From positions 3,444 through 67,443 of the forward strand of contig DATKZA010000001.1 in assembly GCA_035528155.1 (NCBI GenBank): 64,000 bases of DNA. The letters run 5' to 3'. The translations under genes and the position numbers were made by a program. Shown piece by piece: positions 17,178 through 37,270 of the stretch. The first letter of the stretch is position 1. Each line of letters opens with the position of its first letter. Below the pieces are notes generated by a model. It was given only the letters and a program-made list of their open reading frames with translations, was not told the DNA's origin and searched no databases. The stretch comes from Patescibacteria group bacterium (GTDB taxonomy: Bacteria > Acidobacteriota > Aminicenantia > UBA2199).

Positions 17178-18368
17178 ATGAAAAAAATTCTCCCGGTTCT
17201 GGCAATTATTCTGGTCCTGCTATCCAGCCTACCGTTTCCCGACCATGCCTGCACCACGGCCGTCATCAGCCCCGGCGCTTCCAGTTCGGACCGGCCTCTG
17301 CTCTGGAAAAACCGCGACACCGATTTCCTGAACAACAAGGTCATCTTCGTCAGCGAAAGTCCCTTTTCCTACCTGGCCCTGGTCAATGCTGAAGACCGTT
17401 CCGGCCGCTGGGCCTACGCCGGTTTGAATTCAGAGGGATTCGCCATTTTCAACTCCGTGGCCTACAACCTGCCCGAAAGCAGCGGAGAGATGAAGGATAT
17501 GGAAGGGACCATCATGGCCGACGCCCTGCGCAAATGCTCGAGCGTGGCCGATTTCGAAAAATACATTCAGGAAAACCTTGGCCCCAGCCTGGGCAGCCTG
17601 GCCAACTTCGGAGTGTTGGACGCGCAAGGGGATGCAGCTTTGTTCGAGGTATCCAACCGCGCCTTTAAAAAATACACGGCAGCCGATTTTCCGGAAAAAT
17701 ATATCATTAACACCAACTTCGCCCGCAGCGGTGAAGCGGAAACCGGAGCCGGCTATCTCCGTTTCGAAAGGGCGAGTCAGCTGTTCGGCCAGATCCCTCC
17801 CGGGCAGATCTCGCCGTACCTGATCCTGGGCCGGATCAGCCGCGATACCGGGCATGCATTGGTGCAACAACCGGTATACTCGCAGTTCAAAGCTTTTTCC
17901 GCCAAGAAACCATTCTGGATCGCCACCCGCGACACCATCGACCGCGAATCCACTTCGGCCGCCGTGGTCGTCTGCGGCCGGAAACCCGGTCAAAAAAATT
18001 CCCTGGCCACCCTCTGGGTCATGCTGGGTGAACCCCTGTTCACCATAGCCATTCCCATATGGGTGGAAGCGGGCGCGTCAGCCCTCCCACTGGCTCAGGG
18101 CGACAAGGCAGCCCTGTACCTGGAGTCGAAACGCCTGAAAAAAATAGCCCGTCCCCATCCTGAAAGTGACCGCCGTGAATACCTCGAGGCCACACGGCTG
18201 GACAATCGTGAGAGCACAGGCTTCTTGCCGGGCCTGCTGGAAACCGAAAAGGAAATATTCGCTTCTACCGAGGAATTTTTAAAATTTCCGCACACTCCGG
18301 CCGAACTGGCCTCCTTTCAAGAGCAAATGGCTGAAAAAGCCCTGACCGCGTTGCGGGCAGTTCACTGA
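17178..18368 (+). CDS. secreted N-terminal-nucleophile hydrolase, choloylglycine hydrolase/penicillin V acylase-like (C59 family)
   Basis: Signal peptide ending ...DHA then CTTAV (Cys nucleophile) and WKNRDTD (conserved Arg/Asp); listed ORF begins at GTG 17172. Confidence 0.6.
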   Translation: MKKILPVLAIILVLLSSLPFPDHACTTAVISPGASSSDRPLLWKNRDTDFLNNKVIFVSESPFSYLALVNAEDRSGRWAYAGLNSEGFAIFNSVAYNLPESSGEMKDMEGTIMADALRKCSSVADFEKYIQENLGPSLGSLANFGVLDAQGDAALFEVSNRAFKKYTAADFPEKYIINTNFARSGEAETGAGYLRFERASQLFGQIPPGQISPYLILGRISRDTGHALVQQPVYSQFKAFSAKKPFWIATRDTIDRESTSAAVVVCGRKPGQKNSLATLWVMLGEPLFTIAIPIWVEAGASALPLAQGDKAALYLESKRLKKIARPHPESDRREYLEATRLDNRESTGFLPGLLETEKEIFASTEEFLKFPHTPAELASFQEQMAEKALTALRAVH

Positions 18369-19627
18369 GGCGGCGGCTTTCTTTTTCGGCGGCGGCGGTG
18401 ACGTTTGGTCCCAAAGAGCGGACGCGCGGGAAATGCCTGACGGAAAAGGTTTTCAAAGGACTCCCCCTCTTCGGGGGTGCGGTTCTGTTCGATCAGGAAG
18501 CACAGCCGGGAAGCCAGAGCGAACTGCAGCCGGCCGCGCAGGGACCAGCGCATGTTCCCGGTATGCAAAGCCCGGATCATTCTAGCGATCAGAGCCACGA
18601 CATCTATGACCTGGGCGCGCAGGCCTTTGGGCAGGGCCACTGCCATCTCGGCATTCATGAACGCCTTTTTCAGGACCGTGTAAGGATCAGGCGGCGCGCC
18701 GATCAGCAGTGATTCGGCCCAGGGCCAAAAAAGGAGCGCTGCCATTTCCGTCAGGCCCAGATCATGACGCAGTGATTTTTCATGATCGGAAATATCCAAA
18801 AGCGAGCATACCTTGTTAAACAATAAAGGATCGGTTTCGAACGCTTCGCCGATGCAGCCGAGAAGGGGGCGCAGGATCCCATGATCTCGCAAACCGCTGA
18901 TAACGTGCCGTGTCTGCGGGCCCAGCAGATCCTTGGAGAACTCCTCATACAGGCGGGCCGGGGAACAACCGGAAAGCAGATGCCGCTGGGCGCTGATCTC
19001 GCGCCCGAGGTCATCATCAATGGCAAACCCTAGGCGGGCCGCGTAGCGGATTACCCGCCAGATGCGCACGGGATCTTCGCGGAAACGTTCCCCGGCAACG
19101 CCGATGACGCGGATGCGGCGCGAGCGCAGGTCAGCCAAACCTCCGATATGATCGATAAGCGTTGCCGAAACCGGGTCGTAAAACAGTGCGTTGACGGTGA
19201 TATCGCGGCGCCAGGCATCCTGGGCGGGGGTACCGAAAGCGTATTGGGGAGCAGTGCCGGCCGTCAACAGACCCAAAGCATCGGGACCAGGGTCCCTGCG
19301 GAATGTCGCCACTTCGATGATCTTGCCGCAGTGAAAATGGATATGGGCCAAGCGGAAACGCCTCCCGATAATGAAGGCGTTGGTAAAATACTTCTTGACC
19401 TGTGCCGGGCGGGCGTCGGTGGCGATGTCGAAATCCTTGGGCTCTTTTCCCAGCAACATGTCGCGCACCGCGCCACCGGTCAGATAGGCGGTGAAACCCA
19501 GGCGGTTGAGTCGGAAAAGGATCTTGAGGGCGTCCGGATCGATATTCCGTCGCGAGATCGTGTGCTCGGACCTGCTCAGGACGACCGCTTCAGCCGGCTC
19601 CACCGGAGTGGTGTTTTTTTCAGCCAT
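18362..19627 (-). CDS. pcnB: poly(A) polymerase / CCA-adding tRNA nucleotidyltransferase family protein (PcnB-like)
   Basis: LTGGAVRDMLLGKEPKDFDIAT nucleotidyltransferase motif; 421 aa with basic C-terminus. Confidence 0.7.
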   Translation of the reverse strand: MAEKNTTPVEPAEAVVLSRSEHTISRRNIDPDALKILFRLNRLGFTAYLTGGAVRDMLLGKEPKDFDIATDARPAQVKKYFTNAFIIGRRFRLAHIHFHCGKIIEVATFRRDPGPDALGLLTAGTAPQYAFGTPAQDAWRRDITVNALFYDPVSATLIDHIGGLADLRSRRIRVIGVAGERFREDPVRIWRVIRYAARLGFAIDDDLGREISAQRHLLSGCSPARLYEEFSKDLLGPQTRHVISGLRDHGILRPLLGCIGEAFETDPLLFNKVCSLLDISDHEKSLRHDLGLTEMAALLFWPWAESLLIGAPPDPYTVLKKAFMNAEMAVALPKGLRAQVIDVVALIARMIRALHTGNMRWSLRGRLQFALASRLCFLIEQNRTPEEGESFENLFRQAFPARPLFGTKRHRRRRKRKPPPQ

Positions 19628-19636
19628 GGCCCGCGG

Positions 19637-20446
19637 CTAAAAAACGATGAGGCTGGCGTAACCGACCACTTCGTCCATTTCTCCCGTCACTGCCCCGGAA
19701 TGGGTATAGCAGACCAGCTCGGCCCGGGAGGCTCCGGCTGTGCGGGCGGCGCTGAGCATGATCACCGCCGGCGCCACTCCGCACATGGAGATGCGGTTGT
19801 CCGAGACGGTGTGGTACAATCCTTCGGCGTCGAGTTGCAGTACCTTTTCGATGGCTTTAAAATCAAGCTCCCGGGCTCTGGCCGCCGTAATATAATGGCT
19901 CATGTCGCTGGAAGCGACAATCATCAGGTTGCGGTTTTCTTTTAAAAAAACGGCGATTTCCTTACCTGCCGCCAGCAAGTCCTCAAGCCGGCAGGCGCTG
20001 ACAACGATGGGCAGGATGCGCGATCCGGGGCTGGCATAATGGATGAACGGCACCTGCACCTCCAGTGAGTGTTCCAGGCGGCCAGCTTCACTGTCCAGCT
20101 GGAACAAGCCGGAAACGCCCAGCAGGCGCGAGCGCAGTTCGGAATTGACCTCAACATTGCCCAGGGGTGTTTCCCAGTAATCATTGCCGTCCAACGCCAG
20201 GCCCGGCCCAACGCCGCGGTGGTTGACACCCAGGATGATGACGGTTTCGGTCAATTCCACGCGGCCGTAGCCCTGGCCGGCGCAAGCGCCCGAGTACATA
20301 TAACCGGCATGCGGGGCAAGCAGTCCCAGGACTTTCTGCCGGTTTTCAGCAGGCCGGACCATTTGCTGCAATTCAGTTTCCAGGATTTTTTTATCGGACG
20401 GATAAAATTTTCCAACTCCAGCCCAGGCGGTCTTGCGAAACATCAT
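19637..20446 (-). CDS. MEMO1-family protein (AmmeMemoRadiSam system protein B-like)
   Basis: LAPHAGYMYSGACAGQGY and GVNHRG motifs of the Memo-like family. Confidence 0.7.
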   Translation of the reverse strand: MMFRKTAWAGVGKFYPSDKKILETELQQMVRPAENRQKVLGLLAPHAGYMYSGACAGQGYGRVELTETVIILGVNHRGVGPGLALDGNDYWETPLGNVEVNSELRSRLLGVSGLFQLDSEAGRLEHSLEVQVPFIHYASPGSRILPIVVSACRLEDLLAAGKEIAVFLKENRNLMIVASSDMSHYITAARARELDFKAIEKVLQLDAEGLYHTVSDNRISMCGVAPAVIMLSAARTAGASRAELVCYTHSGAVTGEMDEVVGYASLIVF

Positions 20447-20461
20447 GCCATCCTCCTGCCT

Positions 20462-21739
20462 TTATTCAACAATGATCTGCCGGTTCTGCACCACGAGCTT
20501 CCCTGCCTTGAAAACGGTATGCACCGGATTGATGCCCAGGTGGTAGGCCAGATACTGGTAATCGGGGATATCCAGAAGCAGCAGGTCCAATTTCTTGCCC
20601 AGGGCCAGTGAACCGACCTGATGCTGCCGGTCGATGGCGTAGGCCGCGTTGATCGTGACCGCGTTCAAGGCCTGTTCAATGGTCAATCCCATTTGGAAAA
20701 CCGCCAAATGGAAAATCAACAGTTGCGAGGAGATCATAGAGCTCCCGGGGTTGAAATCTGTTCCCAGGGCCACGATGCCATCCGCAGCCAGAATTTTCTG
20801 GGCCGGCGCATAGCGTCCGAGTTTGAGAAAAAAGGAGACACCGGGCAGCAGCACGCAGGACGTCTTGGAAGCGGCAATTTTTGCGATTTCCTCATCGCTG
20901 ATGGCGATCAGATGCGCGGCGGAAATGGCACTGAGCCGGGCGGCCAATTCGGCGGCGCCGTTGGAAGTGAATTCGTCGGCATGCATTTTGATCTTGAAGC
21001 CCCGGGCTGCGGACTGGGTCAGGTAATATTCCGCTTCGGCATAAGAAAAATAACCGTCTTCGCAAAAAATATCCACGAAGTCGGCCAACTGTTTTTCCTG
21101 CACCTTGGGCAGGATATCCCCAAGCAGGTGATCGAGAAAATCCCTGCTTTTCCCCCGGAAAGCATCCGGGATCTCATGGGCGCCCATGAAGGTGGGAACA
21201 ATGGTCACGGGGTGCTGTTCGGCAACGGTTCGCAACGCCTGCAATTGCTTCAATTCGGTTTCCTGGTCCAGGCCGTAACCGCTTTTGGCTTCCAGGGTCG
21301 TCGTGCCGCAGAGCAGCATCTGGTCGAGCCGTTTCCGGCAAACGGCAACCAGGTCTTGAAGGCTGATGGCCCTGGTTTTGCTAACCGTACCCTTGATGCC
21401 GCCGCCGCGGTTGGCGATCTCCTGGTAGCTGACACCCTGCAGCTTCAGGCTGAACTCATCCTGGCGCGTACCGGCGAAAGGAAGATGGGTGTGGGGGTCC
21501 ACCAGCCCCGGCAATGCCACGCAGGCGCCGGCATCCAATTCCAGACCTCCTGGTTCCAGCTGGCAGTGACTGCGAAAATCGGTTTCGCAACCGATGAAGT
21601 TGATCATGCCATGTCGGGCCCCGATGCAAACATTTTCCTGAATGCGCAGGGAGCCGGACTCCTTGCCGCGCACCACGCGGTCGGAGCCGGGATTGACTAG
21701 TTGACTGATGTTGCGGATGACTACATCGACGGCGGTCAT
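20462..21739 (-). CDS. hutI: imidazolonepropionase-like amidohydrolase
   Basis: LVDPHTHLPFAGTRQDEF...SYQEIANRGGGI strongly HutI-like; no hutU/hutH nearby. Confidence 0.7.
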   Translation of the reverse strand: MTAVDVVIRNISQLVNPGSDRVVRGKESGSLRIQENVCIGARHGMINFIGCETDFRSHCQLEPGGLELDAGACVALPGLVDPHTHLPFAGTRQDEFSLKLQGVSYQEIANRGGGIKGTVSKTRAISLQDLVAVCRKRLDQMLLCGTTTLEAKSGYGLDQETELKQLQALRTVAEQHPVTIVPTFMGAHEIPDAFRGKSRDFLDHLLGDILPKVQEKQLADFVDIFCEDGYFSYAEAEYYLTQSAARGFKIKMHADEFTSNGAAELAARLSAISAAHLIAISDEEIAKIAASKTSCVLLPGVSFFLKLGRYAPAQKILAADGIVALGTDFNPGSSMISSQLLIFHLAVFQMGLTIEQALNAVTINAAYAIDRQHQVGSLALGKKLDLLLLDIPDYQYLAYHLGINPVHTVFKAGKLVVQNRQIIVE

Positions 21740-21890
21740 GATTCTTTTCCCTGAGTAAAATTGCCTGAATTCATGAAACCATTGTAAGGGATATTTTGTC
21801 GGATTTCAACAAACGAATCATTGAATTCAATTGTCAGCAATCTCCGCTATTTGACATTTTTTTCAATTGCCGCAAAAAAAAAAAAATAAG

Positions 21891-21930
21891 TTGACAAATC
21901 CGTATTACTGTATTATCATTGTGATACAGT
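21891..21930 (+). promoter_or_regulatory. TTGACA promoter element with overlapping palindrome ACTGTAT-N10-ATACAGT (putative GntR autoregulatory operator)
   Basis: TTGACA 21891-21896; inverted repeat 21907-21913 / 21924-21930 just upstream of the GntR gene; A13 tract at 21874-21886. Confidence 0.45.
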
Positions 21931-21952
21931 GAAAAACTTACTTTTATTTGAA

Positions 21953-22324
21953 ATGACTGTTGATTTTGCTTCGCCGCTGCCGGTATATGAGCAGATCAAA
22001 AAAAACATCAAGCAGGCCATCGCCCGCAATGTCATCCTGGAAAATCAGGCCTTGCCGTCCATTCGCGATCTGGCCCAGTTTCTCAAGATCAACCCAAATA
22101 CCGTGGCCAGGGCCTACCGCGACCTCTCCCAGGAAAAGATCATCAACGGTCGGGCCGGAGTGGGCTTCTGGGTCGAAAAGAGCGAACAGCTCGATTTAAA
22201 GAAAACCGACATGTTGCGTGAAGAGTTTTTCAAATTCACGGAAAAAGCGATTGAATTGGGGTTCTCGCGCCGGCAAATCAAGGACTTGCTCGACAGCTTT
22301 TTTCCGAAGGAGGATGCAAAATGA
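21953..22324 (+). CDS. GntR-family transcriptional regulator (short YtrA-like subfamily)
   Basis: HTH LPSIRDLAQFLKINPNTVARAYRDL; ~124 aa; listed ORF starts at GTG 21929 inside the palindrome, ATG 21953 preferred. Confidence 0.75.
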   Translation: MTVDFASPLPVYEQIKKNIKQAIARNVILENQALPSIRDLAQFLKINPNTVARAYRDLSQEKIINGRAGVGFWVEKSEQLDLKKTDMLREEFFKFTEKAIELGFSRRQIKDLLDSFFPKEDAK

Positions 22325-22947
22325 TGCAAGCCCAAATTTCAGGTGATTTTGTCCGGACAGCCAACGTCCGCGTGCGTTTCGACAGAACCTTGGCTGCCGA
22401 GATCCCGGATCTGGCGATCGAAAACGGAAAAAGAACTCTGCCGGCTTTCAAGGACAAGATATTCTACCTTTGTTTGGGATTCATGGGCAATGCCGCCGAT
22501 GCCCGCGACCTGACCCAGGACACTTTTGCCAAAGCACTGATCCATTATGACCATGACAATCCCGAATATGTACAGGCCTGGCTGATGCGCATCGCCCGCA
22601 ACATCTGCCTGGACCAACTGCGGCGCAGGAAAGTTCGCGGTCCTCAACAACCCGTTTCCGAGTTCACCGCCATTGACTGGAGGACACCGGAATTCAATGC
22701 CGGCACGGAAGAGGAGATACGCATCGTCAGGAAGGCGGTCGCCGGCTTGCCGCGCCGCCTGCGCGAGGTGCTGGTCATGCGCGAATATGGGGAGCTTTCC
22801 TACCAGGAAATCGGCCGCACACTTCACATCAGTACCGCCACGGTGACGTCACGCTTGAACCGGGCCCGCCAGGCCGTACTCCGTTTTTACCAGGAGGAAA
22901 ACAAAATGACAGAAGCCAGAACCCGGAGTGACCATGATCGCCATTGA
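22321..22947 (+). CDS. ECF-type RNA polymerase sigma factor (sigma-70 regions 2 and 4)
   Basis: Region 2 DLTQDTFAKA...WLMRIARN; region 4 YQEIGRTLHISTATVTSRLNRAR; start overlaps GntR stop. Confidence 0.75.
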   Translation: MMQAQISGDFVRTANVRVRFDRTLAAEIPDLAIENGKRTLPAFKDKIFYLCLGFMGNAADARDLTQDTFAKALIHYDHDNPEYVQAWLMRIARNICLDQLRRRKVRGPQQPVSEFTAIDWRTPEFNAGTEEEIRIVRKAVAGLPRRLREVLVMREYGELSYQEIGRTLHISTATVTSRLNRARQAVLRFYQEENKMTEARTRSDHDRH

Positions 22948-23755
22948 GAAGCTCAGTGTCCGTTTCGGCAAGGTCCGGGCGGTCGACGACCTGAGCCTGG
23001 CCATTGATAAGGGTGAAAGCATCCTGCTGGCCGGAGCCAACGGTGCGGGAAAAACGACCTTGCTCAGGACCCTGGCAGGTGTACTGCGCGCCCGGCCGGG
23101 TTCCATCCGTTACGACGGCCGCAAGGCGGACCATCGCACCCGTAAAAAGATCGCCTATATCCCGGCTTCCATCAGCCTGTACGACGGCATGACCGTGAAG
23201 GAAGCGGCGCGAATGCACGCCCATTTCTATGGTCGATCCGCAGCCTGGACCATCAACGGACCGACGTTCCTCCCGGGTCAAAAAATCGCCTCGATGTCCA
23301 AGGGAGAAAAAACCATCTTCTTTCTTTCGCTGGCCCTGGGCGCTGTTCCTGAATACCTTTTCGTCGACGACGTGGTCCACTTTCTCGACCCCCATCTGCG
23401 GGAAGTTTTTCTAACCTCCATCCTGAGACTCATTGAGGAAAAACAGCTCACCGTGATCATGGCCTCGCAATCGGCTTTTGAAATCGAGGGCATTCCCGAA
23501 CGGGTCATGGTCATGGAAAAGGGTAAGGTCATCCTCGATGAAAACGTGGACATGCTGAAGCAAAAGTTCGTCAAATTCTACGGAGAAAGCATTCCCGGCG
23601 ATATCCCGGTCGTATTTTCCAGGCAATGGCAAAACGCCAAGGAAATGTATGTGTACCCCTACCAGCCGGAGCTCCACCGCCTTGACAGCGTCGAGCACTT
23701 GAGCCTGACGGAAATTTTAAGGGCCTTCATAGGAGGCGAATATGCTCGCCACTGA
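22928..23755 (+). CDS. ABC transporter ATP-binding protein
   Basis: Walker A GANGAGKTT; ABC signature region; overlaps sigma gene end by ~20 nt. Confidence 0.8.
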   Translation: MTMIAIEKLSVRFGKVRAVDDLSLAIDKGESILLAGANGAGKTTLLRTLAGVLRARPGSIRYDGRKADHRTRKKIAYIPASISLYDGMTVKEAARMHAHFYGRSAAWTINGPTFLPGQKIASMSKGEKTIFFLSLALGAVPEYLFVDDVVHFLDPHLREVFLTSILRLIEEKQLTVIMASQSAFEIEGIPERVMVMEKGKVILDENVDMLKQKFVKFYGESIPGDIPVVFSRQWQNAKEMYVYPYQPELHRLDSVEHLSLTEILRAFIGGEYARH

Positions 23756-25370
23756 AACCAAGCGCATTTTCAAGGACGGCGTGATCATTTTCATGGTTTT
23801 GGCCGCTATTTTTGCAGGCATCGTCGCCAGCGATCAAGATGTCTATCTGGCCCCGGCCCTGGAAATTTTCCTGCTGCTTTACGCCTCCTTCACGGGCTGG
23901 TCGATGTTCGAAAGGGAGCGGCAGGAAAACGCCGGCGAATACATGCTGTCGCTGCCGTTGTCCCGCAGCCGCCTGCTGCTGCTGAAATTCCTGCCGCGCC
24001 TGCTGAGTGTGTCACTGACTTTTTTGATCTACCTGCGCCTGCACCAGTCCTGGCAACTTCCATCCTTCCTTTCCCCATTCGATTTTTCCCTTTTATACGC
24101 CGGATTTTTTCTGCTTTCGATCGCCTTTTCCATAAGCTTCAAGAACTTCATCAGCGCTTTCTTCATCACCTGCCTGCTGTCGATCGGCCAGATCCTCCTG
24201 ATCAAACTCCTGGACAACAGCCGGGAGATCGGCCAGATCATCTTGCAGGCCAACTTGACCGTTTTGGTCTTCCCCCTCTTTTTCTTTTTTCTTTTTCAGC
24301 GCTATGACATCAAGCCGGTCTCAACCTTCAACAAAAAATTCTTTCCCGGCCTGTTGGCCGCGACCGGCCTGATCGCCGGCTTCATTTTTTACCAGGCTCC
24401 GGCCAACTGGAAGAATCTTACCCTCACCCCAACGGGACTGATCCTTAAAAATTCCTGCGTCCGCAGCGAAATCACCCTGGAGCGGGGACGGAAACGTATT
24501 CCGGGCTGCCTGACCATGCTGCGGGAAAGCGAGGACGGAAACACCCTGTATTGCATGACGCGAAAACTGGACGTCAATAGCCGCTGCATCGAAACGAGCA
24601 TTGTCGCACTCGACCTGAAAACAGGCGATTTGCAAACTCTTTACCGGATCCCGCCGGGCTGGACCATTTACGAAGGACATTACGGAGAATTCGGCAGCAT
24701 TCGCAACGGTACATATTCCCTTTTCCTGCAAAAACCGAAGTCAAAAAAAGCCATGATTCTCGAGATTGACGCCGGGAAAGTCAAGACATTTCCGATCAGG
24801 GGCGATTTTTACGATTCGCGGATCAGCTATGTTTTGCATTTGGCCGGCGAACCCCGTCAACTTGTCATTTTTAGCGAGCCGCGCCTTTACCGCCTGCATG
24901 TTTCCGGCCAGGTGGAAGAGCTCGCCAAGACAAATTCTCTGGACGTCTGGCAAGACAAAATTCTCCTGTTCGAATCCTCGGGTGTGAATCTCTACCGCGT
25001 CGGGGAACAACTGATCCCGCTGCTGCAAAGGAAGGGGAACTACAAAAAAAGCCCGCGCCGGCTCGGCGGCTACGAATCCCCTGGCGTGATTTATCGTACG
25101 GACCGCAGCTACTTCTGGCTGGACATGAAACAGCAGAAAGAGGAAAAATTGGAACTGAAATCTCCGCCATACACCTACCAGCAGAGCGGGGATCATTTCT
25201 ACGTGGTCTTTGTCAACGGCACCGTTTTCACCATCAGGGATATGCGGACCGGAAAGCAGAACGAGATGGTATGGGATCCCGGTTTCAAGCCTGCCGCCAT
25301 CCGCATCTCTCCTTTCGGGATGCTGGTCTTCAGGGATCAAAAATACAAGGTATATCCATTTAAAAATTAA
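23742..25370 (+). CDS. ABC-2-type permease with ~280-aa C-terminal extracytoplasmic domain
   Basis: Six predicted TM helices in the first ~260 aa, then a beta-rich soluble domain; overlaps ATPase stop. Confidence 0.6.
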   Translation: MLATETKRIFKDGVIIFMVLAAIFAGIVASDQDVYLAPALEIFLLLYASFTGWSMFERERQENAGEYMLSLPLSRSRLLLLKFLPRLLSVSLTFLIYLRLHQSWQLPSFLSPFDFSLLYAGFFLLSIAFSISFKNFISAFFITCLLSIGQILLIKLLDNSREIGQIILQANLTVLVFPLFFFFLFQRYDIKPVSTFNKKFFPGLLAATGLIAGFIFYQAPANWKNLTLTPTGLILKNSCVRSEITLERGRKRIPGCLTMLRESEDGNTLYCMTRKLDVNSRCIETSIVALDLKTGDLQTLYRIPPGWTIYEGHYGEFGSIRNGTYSLFLQKPKSKKAMILEIDAGKVKTFPIRGDFYDSRISYVLHLAGEPRQLVIFSEPRLYRLHVSGQVEELAKTNSLDVWQDKILLFESSGVNLYRVGEQLIPLLQRKGNYKKSPRRLGGYESPGVIYRTDRSYFWLDMKQQKEEKLELKSPPYTYQQSGDHFYVVFVNGTVFTIRDMRTGKQNEMVWDPGFKPAAIRISPFGMLVFRDQKYKVYPFKN

Positions 25371-25572
25371 ATAAATCACATTTTAGAAAAGGAGGCCGAA
25401 ATTGAACGGAACAGGTGCAGGCAAAAATAGCGCGGCTGCCGATAATGAAAAGACGTTGGCATTGGCAAAGCATCAGGTGATTTTTAAGATGTCCCGGAAA
25501 GCAATGTCATAGCCGAATCAGAGTAAAGAAATAAAATTGAAAATTAAATATTTTTTAAAAAAGGAGAAAGAA

Positions 25573-27393
25573 ATGAAAAGTGTTAAAGCGTTTTTGTTTG
25601 TCTTGCTGCTCATGCTGGCCTCGTGGGCCTGGTCGGCGGAAATCCACGATGCCGCGCTCAACGGCGACCTGGCCAAGGTCAAGGAACTGCTGGCCAAGAA
25701 CCCGGCGCTGCTTACGGCCGGAAATGACCTCGGCCGCACACCGCTGCATTTGGCCGCGCACCGCGGCCACGTAAAGCTGGCCGCCTGGCTGATCCAGCAG
25801 GGAGCCGACGTCAACGGCAGGGACAGCAGCTACCAGCTGGCCCCGCTGCACCTGGCTGCCTGGGGCGGCGATTTGGAAACCGTCCGCCTGCTGCTCAAGA
25901 AAGGCGCCGATCTGCAGGCCCGGGAAAAAGACAACGAAAACGCCCTTTACTACGCCGCGCTGAGCCCCAACCTGGAACTGGTCAAGTTCCTGGTGGCCAA
26001 GGGCCTGAAAGTCAGGGACACAGAAAGCTCGGCCGGCAACACGCCCCTTTCCATCGCCTTGCAACGGGGCAACCTGGCCATAGCCGAATATTTCCTGGCT
26101 GCGGGCGCCGACGCGCTGTGCAAGGACCGGGAGGGCAGCACCACCCTGCACATGGCCTGCATGCGGGGCAAACAAGCCCTGATTGAGCTCTTGCTCAGGA
26201 AGGGGGTCGCAATTGACGCCCGCGACAATGCAGGCTGGACACCGCTGCTGCTGGCCACGATATTCGGCAACCGCGAGGCGGTCAAAGTTCTCCTGGCGCA
26301 CGGAGCCGATTCCAACACCCGCAATCAAAACGGTCTTTTCCCGCTGCTCCAGGCCGCAAAAGACGGCGCCAGGGAGATCGCCTTGCTGCTGCTGGCTGCC
26401 GGGGCCAGGGCCGGGGATAGCATGGGTGATACCGGAATCGGCGCACTGCACATGGCCTGTGCCCTGGGCTACGGCGATATCGTCAAGGCCCTGCTGGACA
26501 AGGGGGCCGATGCCAACGCCAAAAGCAAGTGGGGCCATTCCCCTCATGGACTGGCCTACCGCTACGGCCACAAGAATATCGCCGAACTTTTGCTGAGCCG
26601 GGGCGCCACTGCAGAAAAGAGTTTGCCAGAGCCGGCCGGGCCCGAATGGCTGAAAAAGCAGTTGTCCGAAGGCGAAGCCCTGGTCTGGTACACGGACCAT
26701 TCGGGTTGGGCGGTCAAAACTGCCAAGCATTTGCTGGTCTTCGACTACTTCAAACCCGGCCCCGCGCCCGACCAGGCCGGGTTGGCCAACGGCACCCTCG
26801 TGCCTGCCGAGCTCAAGGAACAGGCAATGACCGTGTTCATCTCCCACGGCCACAACGACCACTACACACCGGCCTTGTTCGACTGGAAAAAAGAAATCAA
26901 AAACATCACTTACATCACCGGCTTCAAACTCGAAGGCAAAGAAGGTTATCAAATCCTTAGCGCCCATGAAAAACATGCCATGAACGGCATGGAGATCATC
27001 CCCATCGAATCCAACGACAGCGGCCAGGGTTATTTCATCAAGGTAGACGGGGTTTCCATTTTCCATCCCGGCGACCATGCCAACCGCCAGCGCGACTTCT
27101 CCGGTCCCTTCAAAAAGGAGATCGACTTCCTGGCCGACCAGAGCCTCAAGGCCGACATCCTGTTCGCGCCGGTCAGCGGCTGCGGTTTCGGCGACATCGT
27201 TGCTGTAAAAAAAGGCGACTATTACACCATGGATCGCCTGGCGGCCCGCCATGTGTTTCCCATGCATGCCGCCGGCAACCCGCTCCAATACCAGCTGTTC
27301 GCCAAGGAGGCCAAGGGCAGGGGCTATGAAAACGCGTTCCACTGCGCCGAATTCCCCGGCGATTGCTTTGCAGTAAAGCCTATTGGAAGATAG
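25573..27393 (+). CDS. secreted ankyrin-repeat protein fused to C-terminal metallo-beta-lactamase-fold domain (paralog 1)
   Basis: Signal peptide; ~9 ANK repeats (GRTPLHLAAHRGHVKLAAWLIQQGADVN...); C-terminal HxHxDH-like ISHGHNDHY and HPGDHANR; AAGGAG RBS. Confidence 0.75.
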   Translation: MKSVKAFLFVLLLMLASWAWSAEIHDAALNGDLAKVKELLAKNPALLTAGNDLGRTPLHLAAHRGHVKLAAWLIQQGADVNGRDSSYQLAPLHLAAWGGDLETVRLLLKKGADLQAREKDNENALYYAALSPNLELVKFLVAKGLKVRDTESSAGNTPLSIALQRGNLAIAEYFLAAGADALCKDREGSTTLHMACMRGKQALIELLLRKGVAIDARDNAGWTPLLLATIFGNREAVKVLLAHGADSNTRNQNGLFPLLQAAKDGAREIALLLLAAGARAGDSMGDTGIGALHMACALGYGDIVKALLDKGADANAKSKWGHSPHGLAYRYGHKNIAELLLSRGATAEKSLPEPAGPEWLKKQLSEGEALVWYTDHSGWAVKTAKHLLVFDYFKPGPAPDQAGLANGTLVPAELKEQAMTVFISHGHNDHYTPALFDWKKEIKNITYITGFKLEGKEGYQILSAHEKHAMNGMEIIPIESNDSGQGYFIKVDGVSIFHPGDHANRQRDFSGPFKKEIDFLADQSLKADILFAPVSGCGFGDIVAVKKGDYYTMDRLAARHVFPMHAAGNPLQYQLFAKEAKGRGYENAFHCAEFPGDCFAVKPIGR

Positions 27394-27402
27394 GAGAATA
27401 TT

Positions 27403-28944
27403 ATGTTAAATAAAATTATTTTTATTTTATTGGGAATTTATTTTAGTCAGGGGATTATGCCGGCGCAAACCGATAAGCAGGTGGATAGCATGGCATATAC
27501 CCTTGGGTTTTCTACTTATCTTTCACACACCGACAAATATGCTGCTGGTTTTGATATCTATACCGATAGTGATGGATACACCTATGTTTCAGGGAATACC
27601 AGAGATAAAAATTTTCCAACTACAGAAGGAGCGCTTCAAAGAGAGCTCAAGGGAGAAGCGGACGCTTTTGTGGCAAAATTTACGCCGGATGGTAAAATTG
27701 TATTTGCAACCTTAATAGGCGGTACAAAAAGAGAACATCATACAGCCTTAACAGTTGATAAGGATGGGTATATCTATTTGACGGGAGGCACCCATTCTGT
27801 TGATTTTCCTGTAACCCCCGGAGCATACGATACCAGTTTTAACGGAGAAGGTGAATGGGCCGGCGACGTTTACCTTGTAAAAATAAACCCAACCGCAAGT
27901 GCTATTGTTTTCTCAACATTTATTGGTGGAAAAGTGGAGGAAACAGTAAGTGCCGGGAATATTAAGATTGACTCCAAAGGAAATATCCTTATCGCCGGGG
28001 TCACATGTTCACAAGACTTTCCATCCACAAAAGGGGTTATCGACAATAAATTTACGAAGAATGATTCCTTCCTGTCCAAATTCAGCCCCAATGGCGATAA
28101 ACTATTGCTCTCTACTTCTCTGGGAAACGGGGTAATGGAAATGATTACTGGTCTGGCTGTTGATAACAAGGATAGTATTTATGTAACCGGTTTTACCGTT
28201 ACCCCATATCTTCCGGTAACCAAAAATGCCATTCGAAAAAATATGATTAAACCCAAGGTAGGCGGATATGAGGACGGAATTGATCACTTCATAGCCAAAG
28301 TCAATGAAACGGGCACAAAGCTTCTGTATTTAAGTTATTTTGGTGCCGGAGGCCATATGGGCTCTACTCTTTCCTGGGCTGCTCCAAACAGGTTGGTGGC
28401 GTGCGGCAGCACGAAGGAGGATGGGTTTCCAATCACCGAAAATGCACTGGGCAATATAAGGAGAGGAGAAAGGGATTGCTTTATATCGGTTTTTAATTCC
28501 GATGACATGACACTGGAATATTCCACCCTGTTTGGAGGAAGTGAATCCGATAGTATTACAACCGTATCATTTCTCAACAAAGATACGATCATCATTGGGG
28601 GAACAACAATCTCTCCGAATTTTCCGCTTACTAAGAATGCCCTGTTTTCAGAATTCCCTGTTTTGGAAAAGACATTTAACAATACTTTTTTTGGTCGCAG
28701 GAAATCCTTTATTTCCGTGATTGACATCAAGAACAGCAAACTTCTTTATTCGACCTATTTAGGCGGTTGTTTCCGGTTTCAAATTCACGCAGACAAAATT
28801 GGAAATGTTAGTTTTATTGCAGAAGCAGGGCAGCGCGAAGCTGCCGGAATGACGGGTTTCCCTATTACCGAGAATGCTCTTGAGGAACCACCAACCTATA
28901 TCATGCTGGGACGATTGGTATTAAATAATTTTACTAAACAATAA
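27403..28944 (+). CDS. SBBP beta-propeller repeat protein (secreted, AT-rich gene)
   Basis: Repeated motif ...STFIGG...D.G.GIAVD..GNIYVTG.T.S.DFP.T.GA; marked drop in GC and different codon usage versus flanks. Confidence 0.7.
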   Translation: MLNKIIFILLGIYFSQGIMPAQTDKQVDSMAYTLGFSTYLSHTDKYAAGFDIYTDSDGYTYVSGNTRDKNFPTTEGALQRELKGEADAFVAKFTPDGKIVFATLIGGTKREHHTALTVDKDGYIYLTGGTHSVDFPVTPGAYDTSFNGEGEWAGDVYLVKINPTASAIVFSTFIGGKVEETVSAGNIKIDSKGNILIAGVTCSQDFPSTKGVIDNKFTKNDSFLSKFSPNGDKLLLSTSLGNGVMEMITGLAVDNKDSIYVTGFTVTPYLPVTKNAIRKNMIKPKVGGYEDGIDHFIAKVNETGTKLLYLSYFGAGGHMGSTLSWAAPNRLVACGSTKEDGFPITENALGNIRRGERDCFISVFNSDDMTLEYSTLFGGSESDSITTVSFLNKDTIIIGGTTISPNFPLTKNALFSEFPVLEKTFNNTFFGRRKSFISVIDIKNSKLLYSTYLGGCFRFQIHADKIGNVSFIAEAGQREAAGMTGFPITENALEEPPTYIMLGRLVLNNFTKQ

Positions 28945-28972
28945 TAAATATGCACTAAGATAAGGAGAATTT

Positions 28973-30745
28973 ATGAAACACAACAAAGTATTACTGTTTT
29001 GCCTGCTGCTTTTGTTGGCCATATGGGCTTGGGGCGCCGAAATCCATGACGCCGCGCTCAAGGGCGACCTGGCTCAGGTCAAGGAGCTGCTGGCCAGGGA
29101 TCCCTCGTTGATCAACGCCAAAGGCCATAACGAAAAAGCGCCGCTTCATTGGGCCACCCAGGGCGGGCACATCTCCATCGTGAAGTACCTGCTCTCCCGC
29201 GGCGCGGCCGTCGACGACCTGAACATCCAGAAGGAGACGGCGCTGGTCTACGCCGCCGAGGGCGGCCACCTGAAGCTGGCGGAACTGCTCATCGCCAAGG
29301 GGGCCGATCCCAACGTCCGGACCACACTGAAGGTCTCGCCCATCCACTACGCGATTTGGGCGGGCAAAACCGACATGGTCAAGCTGCTGCTGAAGAAGGG
29401 CGCTGACTACAAGTGGGACCGCGGGACAGGATTCACTCTGCTCCACGAGGCGGCCAACCAGGAATCAACGGAAATCGTCGATATTCTGTTGAAAAAGGGG
29501 TTGGCGGTGGATCTGAAGACCCGGTTCGGCGCCACGCCCCTGCATTACGCTTCCTTGCACGGCACCCCGGAGATCGTCTCCTTGCTGATCAAAAAAGGCG
29601 CCGATGTCAACGCCGTTAGCGAGAACGGTTGGTGGCCGCTGGGTCTGGCGGTCAGCAAGGGGAAAGTGCAAATCGCGGCGCTTCTGCTCGCAGCCGGCGC
29701 CCAGGTGAATCGCCAGGACAAGGAAAGCCGGCTCACATCCCTGCATGTGGCCGCCGCCAAGGGCTACGGAAAAACCTGCGCCCTGCTGCTCGAAAATGGG
29801 GCCGACGCCAACTCCCCGGACAAAGACGGCAGGACCCCCTTGTACTATGCCGATCGCTATCAACAAAAGGGGATATCGGCTCTGCTCAAGAGCAAGGGCG
29901 CCAAGCCGGTCGAGAGGGAAAAGCTTTCCGTTCGCCCCTGGCTGACGGAACCCCTGGCCGACGGCCAGGCCGTGGTCTGGTATCTGGGCCATTCGGGCTG
30001 GGCGGTAAAGACCCGGAATCATTTGTTGATTTTTGATTATTGGAAACAGGATGCCGCCCCCGACGAGCCCGGACTGGCCAACGGTTCCATCAATCCGTCG
30101 GAACTTCAGGATATGAACGTGACCGTGTTCGCCTCCCATGCCCATGGCGATCACTATATGCCGAAGATATTCGAATGGCGGAAAACAATACCCAAGATCA
30201 CCTATATCATGGGCTTTAAGCCCGAGAAGGCCGAAGGGTATACGCTGCTGCCCAACCGGGAGAAAAAGCTGATCGGCGGCATGGAGGTCACGGCCATCGA
30301 GTCCAACGACAGCGGCCAGGGATTTTTCGTCAAGGTGGACGGCATTGCCATCTTCCATCCCGGCGATCACGCCAATCGCAAGCGCGATTTTTCCGGGCCG
30401 TTCAAAAAAGAGATCGATTTCCTGGCCGACCAGGGGCTCAGGGCCGATATCCTGTTCGTGCCGGTGAGCGGCTGCGGCTTCGGCGATATCGTCAGCGTCA
30501 AGAAAGGAGTCTATTATACAATCGACCGGTTGGCGGCCCGCTCCGTTTTCCCCATGCATGCCGGCGGAAACGAAACACGTTATCGGGAATTTGCCAAGGA
30601 AGCCAAAAACGCCGCTTATGATGTTCCTTTTTGCCTGCCCGAATTCAGCGGCGACCACTTCATCATCACTCCAGAGGGAGTCAAAGGTGCGTTTGACCAA
30701 GCGACCGCATGTAAAAAGAACGAAAAAAGCGGCTGCAACCGCTAG
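28973..30745 (+). CDS. secreted ankyrin-repeat protein fused to C-terminal metallo-beta-lactamase-fold domain (paralog 2)
   Basis: Collinear with 25573-27393; signal peptide, ANK repeats, ASHAHGDHY/HPGDHANR; C-terminal domain ~85% identical to paralog 1. Confidence 0.75.
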   Translation: MKHNKVLLFCLLLLLAIWAWGAEIHDAALKGDLAQVKELLARDPSLINAKGHNEKAPLHWATQGGHISIVKYLLSRGAAVDDLNIQKETALVYAAEGGHLKLAELLIAKGADPNVRTTLKVSPIHYAIWAGKTDMVKLLLKKGADYKWDRGTGFTLLHEAANQESTEIVDILLKKGLAVDLKTRFGATPLHYASLHGTPEIVSLLIKKGADVNAVSENGWWPLGLAVSKGKVQIAALLLAAGAQVNRQDKESRLTSLHVAAAKGYGKTCALLLENGADANSPDKDGRTPLYYADRYQQKGISALLKSKGAKPVEREKLSVRPWLTEPLADGQAVVWYLGHSGWAVKTRNHLLIFDYWKQDAAPDEPGLANGSINPSELQDMNVTVFASHAHGDHYMPKIFEWRKTIPKITYIMGFKPEKAEGYTLLPNREKKLIGGMEVTAIESNDSGQGFFVKVDGIAIFHPGDHANRKRDFSGPFKKEIDFLADQGLRADILFVPVSGCGFGDIVSVKKGVYYTIDRLAARSVFPMHAGGNETRYREFAKEAKNAAYDVPFCLPEFSGDHFIITPEGVKGAFDQATACKKNEKSGCNR

Positions 30746-30756
30746 TGGAATTTCTG

Positions 30757-30779
30757 CCGGGGGGAGGAAATCCCCCCGG
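30757..30779 (+). terminator. GC hairpin CCGGGGGGA-GGAAA-TCCCCCCGG after ank-MBL paralog 2
   Basis: 9-bp perfect stem 12 nt after the stop codon; weak T-tract (CCCGTTTCATTG); second small hairpin TGTCCGC-TTG-CGGACA at 30791-30807. Confidence 0.5.
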
Positions 30780-30959
30780 CCCGTTTCATTGTCCGCTTGC
30801 GGACAGTAGTGTGCAAAAATGGACAGAATAAAATCTCTCGGGCGCAAGCAGAAGCAGGAATGTGCAGGGTCCTACCTGTGTTATTTTTCAAATCGCTCTC
30901 GTTTCCAGAAATTGGCACCATTCCTGCTCTGTAATTTTGAAACAAATTAGGAGAATGTA

Positions 30960-33182
30960 ATGATGAATTTCCAAAAAATTCTTTTGACAATGCTGATATT
31001 GATCCTCCCCTGCCTGGCCGGACAGGCGGCAGAACAAAGGATCGGAGAGAACGTGGTGCTGCGCCCGCGGATGACGAGCCAGCCGCCGAAAATCGACGGC
31101 ATCCTTGACGATCCGGCCTGGAGCAGCGGGCCCATTGTCCATGAACCATTCATCACCAACAACCCGGTTTACGGAACCCCGCTGCCGGAAAAAACCGAAG
31201 TGTGGCTGACCTATGATCCCGACAATCTCTATTTCGCATTTTACTGCCATGATGACCCCAAGAAAATCAAAGGCACGCTGACCAAGCGCGACAATATTTT
31301 TTCAGAAGACTGGATCGATGTCGATATCGATGCCATGGGCAACCGCCAATTTACTCTTGAAAACGCCTGCAATCCCCTCGGCGTCCAGGGCGACCTGATC
31401 AACTCGGCCTCCAGCGGCGAAAGCGCCGATCCGGACTGGGTTTGGTACAGTGCCGGCCGTGTCGTGACCGACGGCTATATCGTGGAAATGCGCATACCAT
31501 TGAAAAGCATAAAATTTAAAAGCGGGGAAAACGTGACCATGCACATGGGTTTTTACCGCAATCAAAGTCATTCCGGCACCAACTCCTCCTGGCCGCAGAT
31601 CGACCAGAAGATCGGCTATTTCAATTCCCTGACGCCGGTGGTGTTTGACAAGCTGAACAACCAGCTGCGGCTGGAAGCCCTGCCGTCTGTGACCTACGGC
31701 GGCATCTGGGACCGGCAATCTCCCGAAAAATGGTCCGCTGCCGATGATTCGACCCAACTCGGCATAGGGATAAAGTATGGCATCACCTCATCGGTGAATG
31801 CCGAATTGACCGTCAATCCCGACTTCAGCCAGGTGGAAAGCGACCAATTCCAGGTGGTGGCCAACCAGCGCTATCCGATCTTCTACAGTGAAAAACGGCC
31901 GTTTTTCATGGACATCAACAACCAATTCAATTTGGCCGGCACCAACGGCCCGACCAACATGATCACCGCCGTGCATACCCGCAACATCGTGGATCCGTCC
32001 TGGGGAGGGAAGCTGAGCGGAGAATTGAACAGGTTCTCATTCGGCGTTCTCACTGCCGGCGATGAATGGCCCGGGCGGTCGTTCGCCGATTTTCAAAGTC
32101 CCTTCCCGAATCAAAACGCCAATTCTTTCATCGGCCGCATGAAGTACAGCATGAAAGGCGAGGATTATTTCGGACTGCTTTACAGCGGCAGGGAGTTCGG
32201 CAACAGTTTTAACCGGGTTTTGGCCGGGGATCTGCGTTTGCGGCTGCAAGGCGGCCACAGTATCAGTGTCAACGGTCTCTATACCTTTTCCCGGGAGGCG
32301 GATGCCCCGGAAAAATACGCTGGCGACGCATTTACCGTCCAGTATGAATATGCGCAAAAGCCATTGACCATGTTATTTCTCCTGGAGGGGTACAGCCGGA
32401 ATTTCCGCATGGATTCGGCCTTTTATCTGCAGAACGGCATCACCAAGTTCACCGGCTATATTGCCCCCAACTATTACCCGCGGACGGGAAATGGATTGGG
32501 GATCACCCGGGTGACCCCCATGCTGTATGGATATTATTCCCACAACCGTTTTTCCGGTTTGGACGATATATTTATGCAGCCGGCCATACGCTTCAGCCTT
32601 ACCCGGAACAGTTACCTTGAATTGGATTATACCTATTCCAGGGAAGGCTGGCTGGACAAGATGTACAACCAAAGTTTGCTGGAAGCCTATTGGGCTTCCA
32701 GACCGGCCCGTTGGCTGAACCTGCACGGTTCGGTCAGCTACGGCACCGCCCTGCGCTATGATTTCGTCGATCCTTTCCTGGGGAAAAAAATCAATTTCCA
32801 CATCGGGGCCCAGTTCCAGCCCAACGACCGTATTTCCCAGACTTTCGAATATACCTACCAGGATTTTCATCGCCATGGCGACAGCGAACATGTCTTCGAC
32901 CTGAACATCCTGGTGTCCCGCACCACCTACCAGTTCAACAAATCCCTGTTTGTGCGGGCATTGGTCCAGTACGACAGCTATTCAAAAAAAGTGATCACCG
33001 ATCTGCTGGCTTCGTTCACCCTGATCCCCGGTACCGTGCTTTATGTGGGCTATGGTTCCTTGTACAGGGAACAATACTGGGATGAAGCCAATGCCGCCTG
33101 GAAACGCCAGCCCGGTCCGGGCAGCTATTACCAGACCACCCAAAGTGTTTTTATCAAAGCCAGTTACCTGTGGAGGTTTTAA
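30960..33182 (+). CDS. DUF5916/CBM9-like domain outer-membrane protein (putative beta-barrel)
   Basis: Signal peptide; N-terminal KIDGILDDPAWSSGP...DNLYFAFYCHD resembles CBM9-like DUF5916; C-terminus ends in aromatic residue (WRF); AGGAG RBS. Confidence 0.6.
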   Translation: MMNFQKILLTMLILILPCLAGQAAEQRIGENVVLRPRMTSQPPKIDGILDDPAWSSGPIVHEPFITNNPVYGTPLPEKTEVWLTYDPDNLYFAFYCHDDPKKIKGTLTKRDNIFSEDWIDVDIDAMGNRQFTLENACNPLGVQGDLINSASSGESADPDWVWYSAGRVVTDGYIVEMRIPLKSIKFKSGENVTMHMGFYRNQSHSGTNSSWPQIDQKIGYFNSLTPVVFDKLNNQLRLEALPSVTYGGIWDRQSPEKWSAADDSTQLGIGIKYGITSSVNAELTVNPDFSQVESDQFQVVANQRYPIFYSEKRPFFMDINNQFNLAGTNGPTNMITAVHTRNIVDPSWGGKLSGELNRFSFGVLTAGDEWPGRSFADFQSPFPNQNANSFIGRMKYSMKGEDYFGLLYSGREFGNSFNRVLAGDLRLRLQGGHSISVNGLYTFSREADAPEKYAGDAFTVQYEYAQKPLTMLFLLEGYSRNFRMDSAFYLQNGITKFTGYIAPNYYPRTGNGLGITRVTPMLYGYYSHNRFSGLDDIFMQPAIRFSLTRNSYLELDYTYSREGWLDKMYNQSLLEAYWASRPARWLNLHGSVSYGTALRYDFVDPFLGKKINFHIGAQFQPNDRISQTFEYTYQDFHRHGDSEHVFDLNILVSRTTYQFNKSLFVRALVQYDSYSKKVITDLLASFTLIPGTVLYVGYGSLYREQYWDEANAAWKRQPGPGSYYQTTQSVFIKASYLWRF

Positions 33183-37261: not shown

Positions 37262-37270
37262 TGTAGCCTC

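Follow-up and report, generated by a model that had tools for sequence, protein, structure and literature searches.

Operons that join a YtrA-type GntR repressor to genes of an ATP-binding cassette (ABC) transporter have been described as ytrGABCDEF in Bacillus subtilis (PMC12772383, PMC8060467), as clnRAB in Clostridioides difficile (10.1101/347286), and with Rv1152 in Mycobacterium tuberculosis (PMC4923875). The operon discussed here, at positions 21891-25370 of a 64,000-nt stretch of contig DATKZA010000001.1 (the window; coordinates are window positions unless another locus is named), is laid out in the same way: the first gene encodes a short (~125 aa) GntR protein without a ligand domain, genes for an ABC ATPase and an ABC-2-like permease come next, and a palindromic operator lies on the operon's own promoter. 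The known operons are generally tied to envelope or antimicrobial stress. Staphylococcus aureus pmtR-pmtABCD is another YtrA-type repressor-ABC operon, and the window GntR resembles its repressor by matching NCBIfam model NF047563. The window operon differs from these systems in coming from another phylum (uncultured and Aminicenantes-like), in having a single ATPase with a non-canonical Q-loop, signature, Walker B and H-loop, in a permease with a seventh helix and a predicted periplasmic beta-propeller, in secreted ankyrin/metallo-beta-lactamase (MBL) proteins encoded downstream, and, in one sub-clade of its family, in the gene of a sigma factor with extracytoplasmic function (ECF), placed inside the operon. 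A literature search found no report of an ECF gene within a YtrA-type operon, although such an absence is not proof.

Among ECF systems, the B. subtilis sigY-yxlCDEFG operon (group ECF31) likewise encodes, on a shared transcript, an ECF sigma together with an ABC ATPase and an ABC-2 permease (PMC7826278). There, however, the operon opens with the sigma, and the co-encoded YxlC/YxlD control it, whereas the window has no YxlC/D-like gene, a sigma-70-type promoter under GntR, and a sigma that was inserted late. Among the ECF sigma factors described in PMC7826278 that lack an anti-sigma and are instead under transcriptional control, ECF39 and ECF234 are each paired with a two-component system, ECF234 also with an ABC transporter, and ECF203 with an adjacent TetR (predicted). 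The window sigma resembles these groups in the lack of a cognate anti-sigma, in a neighbouring transcription regulator, in the lack of a conserved auto-regulatory ECF promoter, and in an activity that is presumably set by the amount of sigma. It differs from them in that the regulator is of the GntR/YtrA type, that the sigma lies inside the repressor's own operon, and that a close paralogue, very probably in the same genome, has an ECF promoter and a likely membrane inhibitor. By analogy, the window operon would combine a repressor-ABC module of the YtrA/PmtR/ClnR type with an ECF sigma under transcriptional control. The explanation that we favour, at a probability of roughly 0.55, is that a GntR-ATPase-permease module received a partnerless copy of a resident ECF sigma's bare open reading frame (ORF), which there came under the transcriptional control of GntR.

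Pfam and NCBIfam were used to score the proteins of the window, and the GntR, sigma and ATPase proteins scored above the curated cut-offs (Table 1). The PF00392 winged helix-turn-helix match spans GntR residues 20-82, and PF12679, which the permease itself narrowly misses, is a precomputed annotation on most permease homologues. Read directly from the sequence, the GntR and sigma genes overlap by 4 nt (ATGA), and both the sigma and ATPase genes and the ATPase and permease genes overlap by 14 nt. All four gene calls of the initial annotation, which had described a YtrA-like repressor, an ECF sigma, an ABC ATPase and a permease, hold, and the sigma ORF, for which a mis-frame had been considered, is intact, with domain scores above cut-off, a Shine-Dalgarno sequence, and start-stop coupling to the preceding gene. 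The sigma is made up of sigma2 and sigma4 only, with no sigma3 and a linker that is disordered in the structural model, as is characteristic of ECF (group 4) sigma factors. Its best subgroup model is NF058625 (GFO_1088/PG0214 family), at 103.9 bits against a cut-off of 130, and the SigW and SigM models score far below theirs. The repressor aligns end to end with the NCBIfam models for PmtR (7-122 of 125) and Rv1152, and is similar over its full length to the short YtrA-type structures 4HAM, 3BY6, 3IC7 and 2DU9 (113-134 aa). As in other YtrA-type proteins, a short C-terminal part (~50 aa) takes the place of a ligand-binding domain, giving a total of 123-131 aa, ABC genes lie alongside, and the palindromic operator sits on the gene's own promoter. 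The PF00392 match, the PmtR and Rv1152 models and the short GntR structures all agree with the YtrA-like identity first proposed for it.

The GntR gene is preceded by a promoter, TTGACA-17-TATCAT, that is the best sigma-70-like site within 21700-31000 (9.3 kb) and the sole strong promoter of the operon. Its -10 box sits inside the palindrome ACTGTAT-N10-ATACAGT, an overlap that had been noted at the outset and that stands. An extra half-site-like CCGTAT (21900-21905) lies 5' of the palindrome. Within the 64-kb window the palindrome is unique even with 2 mismatches permitted, and no second GntR operator was found. A single 7+7 palindrome, taken alone, is not significant. The block of promoter and operator is, in addition, kept with fixed spacing in 22 distinct orthologous sequences, down to ~30% protein identity, with the consensus GTTGACAaanCcGTATnnCTGTATTAttATnnTGATACAGTGAaaaA, and the same set keeps both the -35 box and an AT-rich -10 box. 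A distant sister family (locus L048) has the same design, with ATTGTAT-N10-ATACAAT over the -10 box. This phylogenetic footprinting strongly suggests that the palindrome is a repressor site that occludes the -10 box, and the behaviour of the YtrA family suggests that GntR binds it and represses through it.

The likely start of the repressor gene is itself part of this arrangement. Residues near the GntR N-terminus (…LL.E….DF) are conserved in orthologues and are encoded 5' of ATG 21953, and the GTG at 21929 is therefore favoured as the start, which would probably place the beginning of translation within the right operator arm. This GTG is ~3 nt from the expected transcription start, which would leave the GntR mRNA with little or no leader. 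Deeper lineages have, ~10 nt past the same GTG, an ATG that lacks a Shine-Dalgarno sequence. Directly 5' of the -35 box is a run of 13 A (21874-21886, plus strand), where nearly all orthologous loci are A-rich; this tract is UP-element-like and may act as such.

Two traits typical of ECF systems, an adjacent cognate anti-sigma and an auto-regulatory ECF-type promoter, were not found at the operon. Among the operon proteins there is no Pfam or NCBIfam anti-sigma domain, the zinc motif HxxxCxxC is absent from every frame of 21700-25600, no alternative-frame ORF is conserved across loci, and six-frame translations of the window and the operon loci contain no homologue of the proteins that accompany the sigma's paralogue, described below. 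A YxlC/YxlD-type regulator after the sigma is likewise missing; the ATPase gene overlaps the sigma stop, and no intervening or hidden ORF is present there. The initial annotation had remarked on the lack of an anti-sigma gene, had proposed a search for HxxxCxxC in small overlapping frames, and had named a canonical anti-sigma gene in such a frame as a finding that would count against it; the domain, motif, hidden-ORF and partner searches leave its remark in place. Two features of the sigma protein were considered as substitutes and rejected. A resemblance of its tail (…SDHDRH) to the start of the paralogue's partner (MEKDLDRW) could have marked an anti-sigma remnant, and the tail turned out to be the ATPase start region read in another frame. 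The N-terminal extension was considered as a regulatory domain, and residues 1-31 have a predicted local distance difference test score (pLDDT) <50, are unconserved, and are matched by N-termini in the paralogues that are also variable. A relaxed pattern for an auto-regulatory ECF promoter near the operon gave 5 matches against 2.6 expected, all intragenic or unconvincing.

The likely source of the embedded sigma is a resident ECF sigma from which it diverged recently as a paralogue. Among 160 sigma homologues, many are proteins of 176-190 aa with 60-75% core identity to the operon-type sigma. A neighbour-joining (NJ) tree of 130 sigmas separates operon-type (60 tips) from paralogue-type sequences (69 tips) as reciprocally monophyletic groups, which points to a single capture event. 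The two clades hardly differ in regions 2 and 4, and at 80% conservation no substitution is fixed between them. In four paralogue loci (L027, L028, L029 and L037), the sigma gene is followed by genes for a 177-181 aa protein with a single transmembrane (TM) helix and for a 214-215 aa signal-peptide protein. The gene of the 177-181 aa protein overlaps the sigma stop, and the protein has ~50 cytoplasmic residues besides its one TM helix; it is likely to be the short anti-sigma of the parental sigma. The trio formed by CnrH, CnrY and CnrX consists of a sigma, a short membrane anti-sigma and a periplasmic protein. This is the closest analogue of the paralogue locus rather than of the window, as the paralogue locus likewise pairs its ECF sigma with a small single-pass protein, of which only ~50 residues are cytoplasmic, and with a secreted one, although no sequence or Pfam similarity was detected between the two and the gene order is different.

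The paralogue loci also have what the operon lacks, an ECF-type promoter. It reads GGAATATTwTG-N6-CGGsGCGTTwA and ends a few bases 5' of ATGATGCAGG; the site (GGAATATT…GCGTTwA) is found at L027 4965-5003, L028 4929-4967, L029 3965-4003 and L037 5' of 5001, ending ~8 nt before ATGATG. With so short a distance the parental sigma mRNA is probably leaderless, and this may explain how an ORF could be captured without a leader. The embedded sigma begins with the same MMQ as the paralogue, and the paralogue promoter motif is absent from all operon loci. If the favoured explanation is correct, the window is without an anti-sigma because the sigma copy brought with it neither the ECF promoter, nor the membrane protein, nor the secreted protein.

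Both sigmas occur together in at least one assembly. In GCA_035390365.1 the operon-type sigma lies on contig 33 (L039), and contig 2 (L037) carries the paralogue together with both of its partners; the two sigmas are 61% identical over 161 core residues. The window's sigma and permease are HUU04261.1 and HUU04263.1 (locus tag VMZ49_00160), and a partial paralogue-type sigma, HUU05944.1, shares with them the odd label 'Patescibacteria group bacterium'; by accession series, both copies are very probably present in the window's own metagenome-assembled genome (MAG). Organism labels at NCBI clash more widely among the related records, with Patescibacteria group, Chrysiogenales/Chrysiogenia, Candidatus Binatia, uncultured Clostridia, Acidobacteria and Aminicenantes all in use for the records behind the window, L004, L006, L011, L016, L022 and P0042/P0108. 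Several of these labels look wrong, since the lineage is Aminicenantes-like to judge by its gene content and synteny.

The closeness of the two sigmas bears on whether an anti-sigma might act in trans, with the embedded sigma controlled post-translationally by the paralogue's single-pass protein and GntR setting its amount only; the true on/off switch would then be the parental anti-sigma pathway. The identity between the sigmas, within one MAG and across the clades, the lack of any clade-fixed substitution, and the presence of both loci in GCA_035390365.1, and probably in the window's MAG, would all allow such control, which is compatible with the capture of a bare sigma ORF. We nevertheless regard it as unlikely, as the partner's identity as an anti-sigma is itself putative, and full control by the partner would leave a separate repressor little to add.

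By gene content and the ATPase tree, the sigma is a late arrival in a much older GntR-ATPase-permease unit. We annotated 23 genome loci and look-ups by phmmer, and compared more than 25 related loci overall. GntR-ATPase-permease forms the conserved core of every annotated locus, usually followed by a secreted ankyrin/MBL protein. The core occurs without a sigma in L002/L017, L012, L014-L024, L026 and the distant L048, where a 617 aa permease relative is again encoded in the order GntR-ATPase-permease. A sigma gene between GntR and ATPase occurs only in the window, L003, L004, L007, L009, L010, L011, L013, L025 and L034-L047, and in the ATPase NJ tree these sigma-bearing loci form one clade, with every deeper lineage being sigma-less. 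The initial annotation had called a sigma inside a YtrA-type ABC operon unusual, and its restriction to this one sub-clade of the family agrees. The sigma, ATPase and permease of the long-read MAGs L011 and L013 are split over several frames, most likely through sequencing indels rather than as pseudogenes. Another outlying locus, L001 5397-6014 (CP070627, a 9.1 Mb record), has a permease and an ankyrin protein, no GntR, and a 5'-shortened ATPase (160-205 aa) beside a peptidyl-prolyl isomerase fragment, and seems to represent a module copy that has decayed or been rearranged.

Three sigma-less loci, L005, L006 and L008, are nested within the sigma clade and preserve the mark of a loss. In the window the sigma gene is framed by two copies of AAAATGA, the second of which is followed by a 24-nt spacer (Table 1), and in L007 the sigma ends at the second AAATGA with the ATPase start 24 nt further on. 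In L005, L006 and L008 the GntR stop AAATGA is followed by the same 24-nt spacer and then by the ATPase, whereas deep sigma-less lineages have no spacer. These three loci also retain a relic mini-ORF of 11-13 codons (L005 7166-7195, L006 2896-2925, L008 4816-4845), for example MTCAETGTDHD followed by a stop. The L008 relic, MTDARNERDHDQD and a stop, is homologous to the tail of the window sigma, MTEARTRSDHDRH and a stop. Judged by these sequences, the relic ORF is the sigma start joined to the sigma tail at the AAAATGA repeat, and is the footprint of a precise deletion. The nested position of the sigma-less loci, the spacer and the relic together indicate that the sigma was inserted once and then cleanly deleted at least once.

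A gene that can be removed so cleanly might be a passenger, that is, a nearly neutral sigma duplicate with no distinct role and on its way to loss. Such a fate would also suit the greater variability of the operon-type clade at otherwise conserved positions, the unconstrained N-terminal 30-45 residues, and a ratio of nonsynonymous to synonymous substitution rates (dN/dS) over the whole sigma gene that is above the GntR and ATPase values. Set against this, every well-assembled locus with a sigma has the ORF intact, the operon-type clade comprises ~47 distinct clusters at 90%, and one species-level variant is found as an identical protein on at least 24 contigs from many samples. The Shine-Dalgarno sequence and the start-stop coupling are conserved as well, and core dN/dS is well below 1, at 0.17-0.69 for the operon-type sigma and 0.22-0.56 for the paralogue, rough figures with dS near saturation. 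As its core dN/dS is like that of the paralogue, the embedded copy appears to be a maintained gene, and a passenger role is quite improbable.

On the favoured explanation, in which a captured sigma is placed under GntR, a GntR dimer would bind the 7-N10-7 palindrome around the -10 box and switch off the sole strong promoter, as judged from its YtrA relatives. An envelope-related cue, probably tied to the ABC/propeller complex, would relieve this repression. The sigma would then be translated from the polycistronic mRNA by means of its own GGAGG and ATGA coupling, and, with near-parental sigma2 and sigma4, would probably direct RNA polymerase to the parental regulon with promoters of the GGAAT-N16-CGTT type. 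It might do so free of the parental membrane inhibitor or by out-titrating it. The net effect would be to wire a repressor-sensed signal into an ECF regulon, with the amount of sigma set transcriptionally.

Taken one step further, the embedded sigma could be a deliberate bypass of the anti-sigma checkpoint, in which a sigma otherwise kept at the membrane by its inhibitor gains an inhibitor-less copy under the one-component repressor of an ABC/beta-propeller envelope sensor. We put this forward tentatively, as possible but doubtful. If it is true, a second, unrelated signal could fire the same ECF regulon, or sensitise it by titration. In a bolder version, the ABC complex, with motifs for ATP binding rather than turnover, would itself be the sensor that releases the repressor, and this would be a new type of transporter-derived signalling pathway ending in a sigma factor.

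Several points weigh against the capture of a functional sigma as set out above. YtrA-type proteins have no classical ligand domain, and the inducing signal is envelope-related by conjecture only. The sigma has been lost at least once, so that its contribution is dispensable. At two positions near DNA-contacting residues (RN[T]CLD, TV[M]SRL) the operon-type sigmas vary more than the paralogues do, and their specificity may have drifted. No target or ECF-type promoter of the sigma was found in the 64-kb window or in ~450 kb of related loci, so that its regulon is drawn from sequence similarity alone. The 177-181 aa protein of the paralogue loci matches no Pfam family and carries a hypothetical-protein annotation, its anti-sigma role being assigned from position and topology. 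The co-occurrence of both sigmas in the window's MAG is read from accession numbering, and MAGs can be chimeric. Finally, the whole proposed mechanism is, for all family members, a reading of sequences.

The ABC proteins of the operon are themselves atypical. Walker A of the ATPase is intact and conserved (GANGAGKT), and alignment to ABCA3 places an alanine at the Q-loop glutamine (PAS), MSKGE at the signature, DD instead of DE in Walker B, and a glutamine at the H-loop histidine. The canonical catalytic set of Q-loop Gln, LSGGQ, Walker B Asp-Glu and H-loop His is, in other words, not present in the window ATPase, and the unit is accordingly only loosely a member of the ABC-2 transporters. The non-canonical pattern, with a family-wide signature of LS(K/R)GE, occurs in 24/24 family members examined, with or without a sigma. 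The distant L048 ATPase has the same signature and H-loop variants, but retains the Walker B DE. Motif sets of this kind resemble the 'degenerate site' of heterodimeric ABC exporters. Here they belong to what should be a homodimer, and they suggest a slow, switch-like use of ATP.

In the permease, the AlphaFold model (pLDDT 86.8) is helical to residue 217 and all-beta thereafter. The helix pattern and an ERExxxxxE coupling-helix motif fit the ABC-2 type, with the seventh helix as an extra. Averaged over 28 permease sequences, Lys plus Arg counts are 2.8, 4.0 and 2.8 for inside loops and 0.5-0.9 outside, which indicates that the N-terminus is inside and that the C-terminal propeller is, as predicted from sequence and model, periplasmic. 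A soluble, beta-rich C-terminal domain had been described at first sight, and the model upholds its all-beta nature; its size is ~320 aa (residues ~225-542) rather than the 280 aa then given. Foldseek against the PDB matched the propeller to BamB, aromatic amine dehydrogenase, prolyl oligopeptidase and AztD (E ~1e-7, ~10% identity), and against viral structures returned generic propellers only. The domain is a generic beta-propeller in a rare fusion, and not the common transporter accessory domain that it might have been: a profile search of 1.84 billion representatives gave 300 relatives, and a word-based search gave 72 matches, all of ~540-555 aa and from Aminicenantes and Acidobacteriota MAGs.

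It was also suggested initially that the permease ectodomain or the GntR protein might provide the missing anti-sigma function, and more generally, the ABC complex (through its degenerate ATPase or its permease with ectodomain) or GntR could act as an unconventional anti-sigma that keeps hold of the sigma pending a periplasmic signal. In favour of this, translational coupling links the genes, the ATPase is expected to bind ATP but to be poor at hydrolysing it, as would suit signalling, the propeller is predicted to lie in the periplasm, and no other partner is encoded in cis. Yet the lengths and motifs of GntR, ATPase and permease, and the operator, are the same in lineages that never had the sigma and in those that lost it, with no domain gained. 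The non-canonical ATPase motifs predate the sigma, being present in all sigma-less members and partly in L048, which argues against a newly evolved anti-sigma role, and the sigma has no extra folded domain for docking. With a unit that is older than the sigma and unchanged where the sigma is absent or lost, this suggestion is not supported and is highly improbable.

Table 1. Features of the repressor-sigma-ABC operon and the genes downstream of it (window coordinates).
Feature	Position	Strand	Details
Sigma-70-type promoter, TTGACA-17 nt-TATCAT	-35 21891-21896, -10 21914-21919	+	11/12 positions match
Putative operator	21900-21930		Palindrome ACTGTAT (21907-21913)-N10-ATACAGT (21924-21930); arms bracket the -10 box
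GntR repressor	21929 (GTG) or 21953 (ATG)-22324	+	131 aa or 123 aa; PF00392 47.8 bits, cut-off 27
Shine-Dalgarno sequence, GGAGG	22309-22313	+	7 nt 5' of sigma ATG; similar purine-rich sites in other sigma-bearing loci
AAAATGA, left junction	22318-22324	+	GntR stop/sigma start
ECF sigma	22321-22947	+	208 aa; Sigma70_r2 48.6 bits, r4_2 55 bits, TIGR02937 82.6 bits, cut-off 42.9
Parts of the sigma			Residues 1-31 disordered and variable; sigma2 ~40-106; sigma4 ~123-200
AAAATGA, right junction repeat	22903-22909	+	Near sigma 3' end; followed by the 24-nt spacer that survives in sigma-less derivatives
ABC ATPase	22934 (ATG; GTG at 22928)-23755	+	273 aa; PF00005 68.8 bits
Permease	23742-25370	+	542 aa; ABC2_membrane_2 (PF12679) 24.8 bits, just below the cut-off of 27.2
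Permease membrane domain	23742-24398	+	Residues 1-219; seven predicted TM helices (ABC-2/type V-like six and one extra)
Permease beta-propeller domain	24414-25370	+	Residues 225-542; ~30 strands in AlphaFold model
Secreted ankyrin-repeat and MBL-fold (Lactamase_B_3) protein	25573-27393	+	N-terminus signal-peptide-like; homologue 3' of permease in most loci, including sigma-less ones
Secreted SBBP beta-propeller-repeat protein	27403-28944	+	Homologue directly 3' of permease in L034-L047 lineage
Second ankyrin and MBL-fold paralogue	28973-30745	+	
Intrinsic-terminator-like hairpin	30756-30780	+	10 bp stem, 9 G-C pairs; first convincing terminator past the promoter

Beyond the permease, the two ankyrin/MBL paralogues, with ~9 ankyrin repeats each, flank the SBBP propeller gene. 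Homologues of the ankyrin/MBL genes lie 3' of the permease in most loci of the family, including those at 30% identity, and on the strength of this conservation they appear to be part of the module. The transcription unit may span 21891-30780. The 202-nt gap at 25371-25572 holds a 9/12 promoter-like site ahead of the first ankyrin gene, so that co-transcription of the ankyrin and SBBP genes with the operon is no more than possible. Just past the terminator is a CBM9/DUF5916 gene (30960-33182), and another such gene lies beside the paralogue sigma operon (L028 6786-9431). No ECF-type promoter was seen 5' of either, and the shared neighbour is possibly a coincidence.

The operon is flanked by a PcnB-Memo-amidohydrolase block (18362-21739, minus strand) and, further on, by FtsZ/FtsA of the cell-division cluster (36041-38491, minus strand), and the same neighbourhood recurs in L003 and L034-L047. 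A separate promoter, TTGAAA-17-TACAAT at 21809-21781, with the conserved motif GGATTTCAAC, belongs to the divergent amidohydrolase gene. No RNA element within the window matched Rfam at gathering score. A defence-system reading of the locus was dropped, the PADLOC matches being generic P-loop and ankyrin hits only.

The operon offers a natural case of regulatory rewiring, in which a sigma, probably copied without its inhibitor, has been maintained by purifying selection in many lineages and removed by precise deletion in others, and the ancestral, derived and reverted states of the operon are all at hand for comparison. As such it is an instructive rather than a revolutionary case, and of moderate interest. 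It also draws attention to a rare and uncharacterised family in which ABC-2 permeases carry periplasmic beta-propellers and are paired with atypical ATPases, from a phylum without a cultured model. If bypass or titration of the parental inhibitor proves true, the embedded sigma would represent a simple bacterial route for feeding a new input into an existing ECF regulon, and a compact GntR-operator-ECF cascade for synthetic biology.

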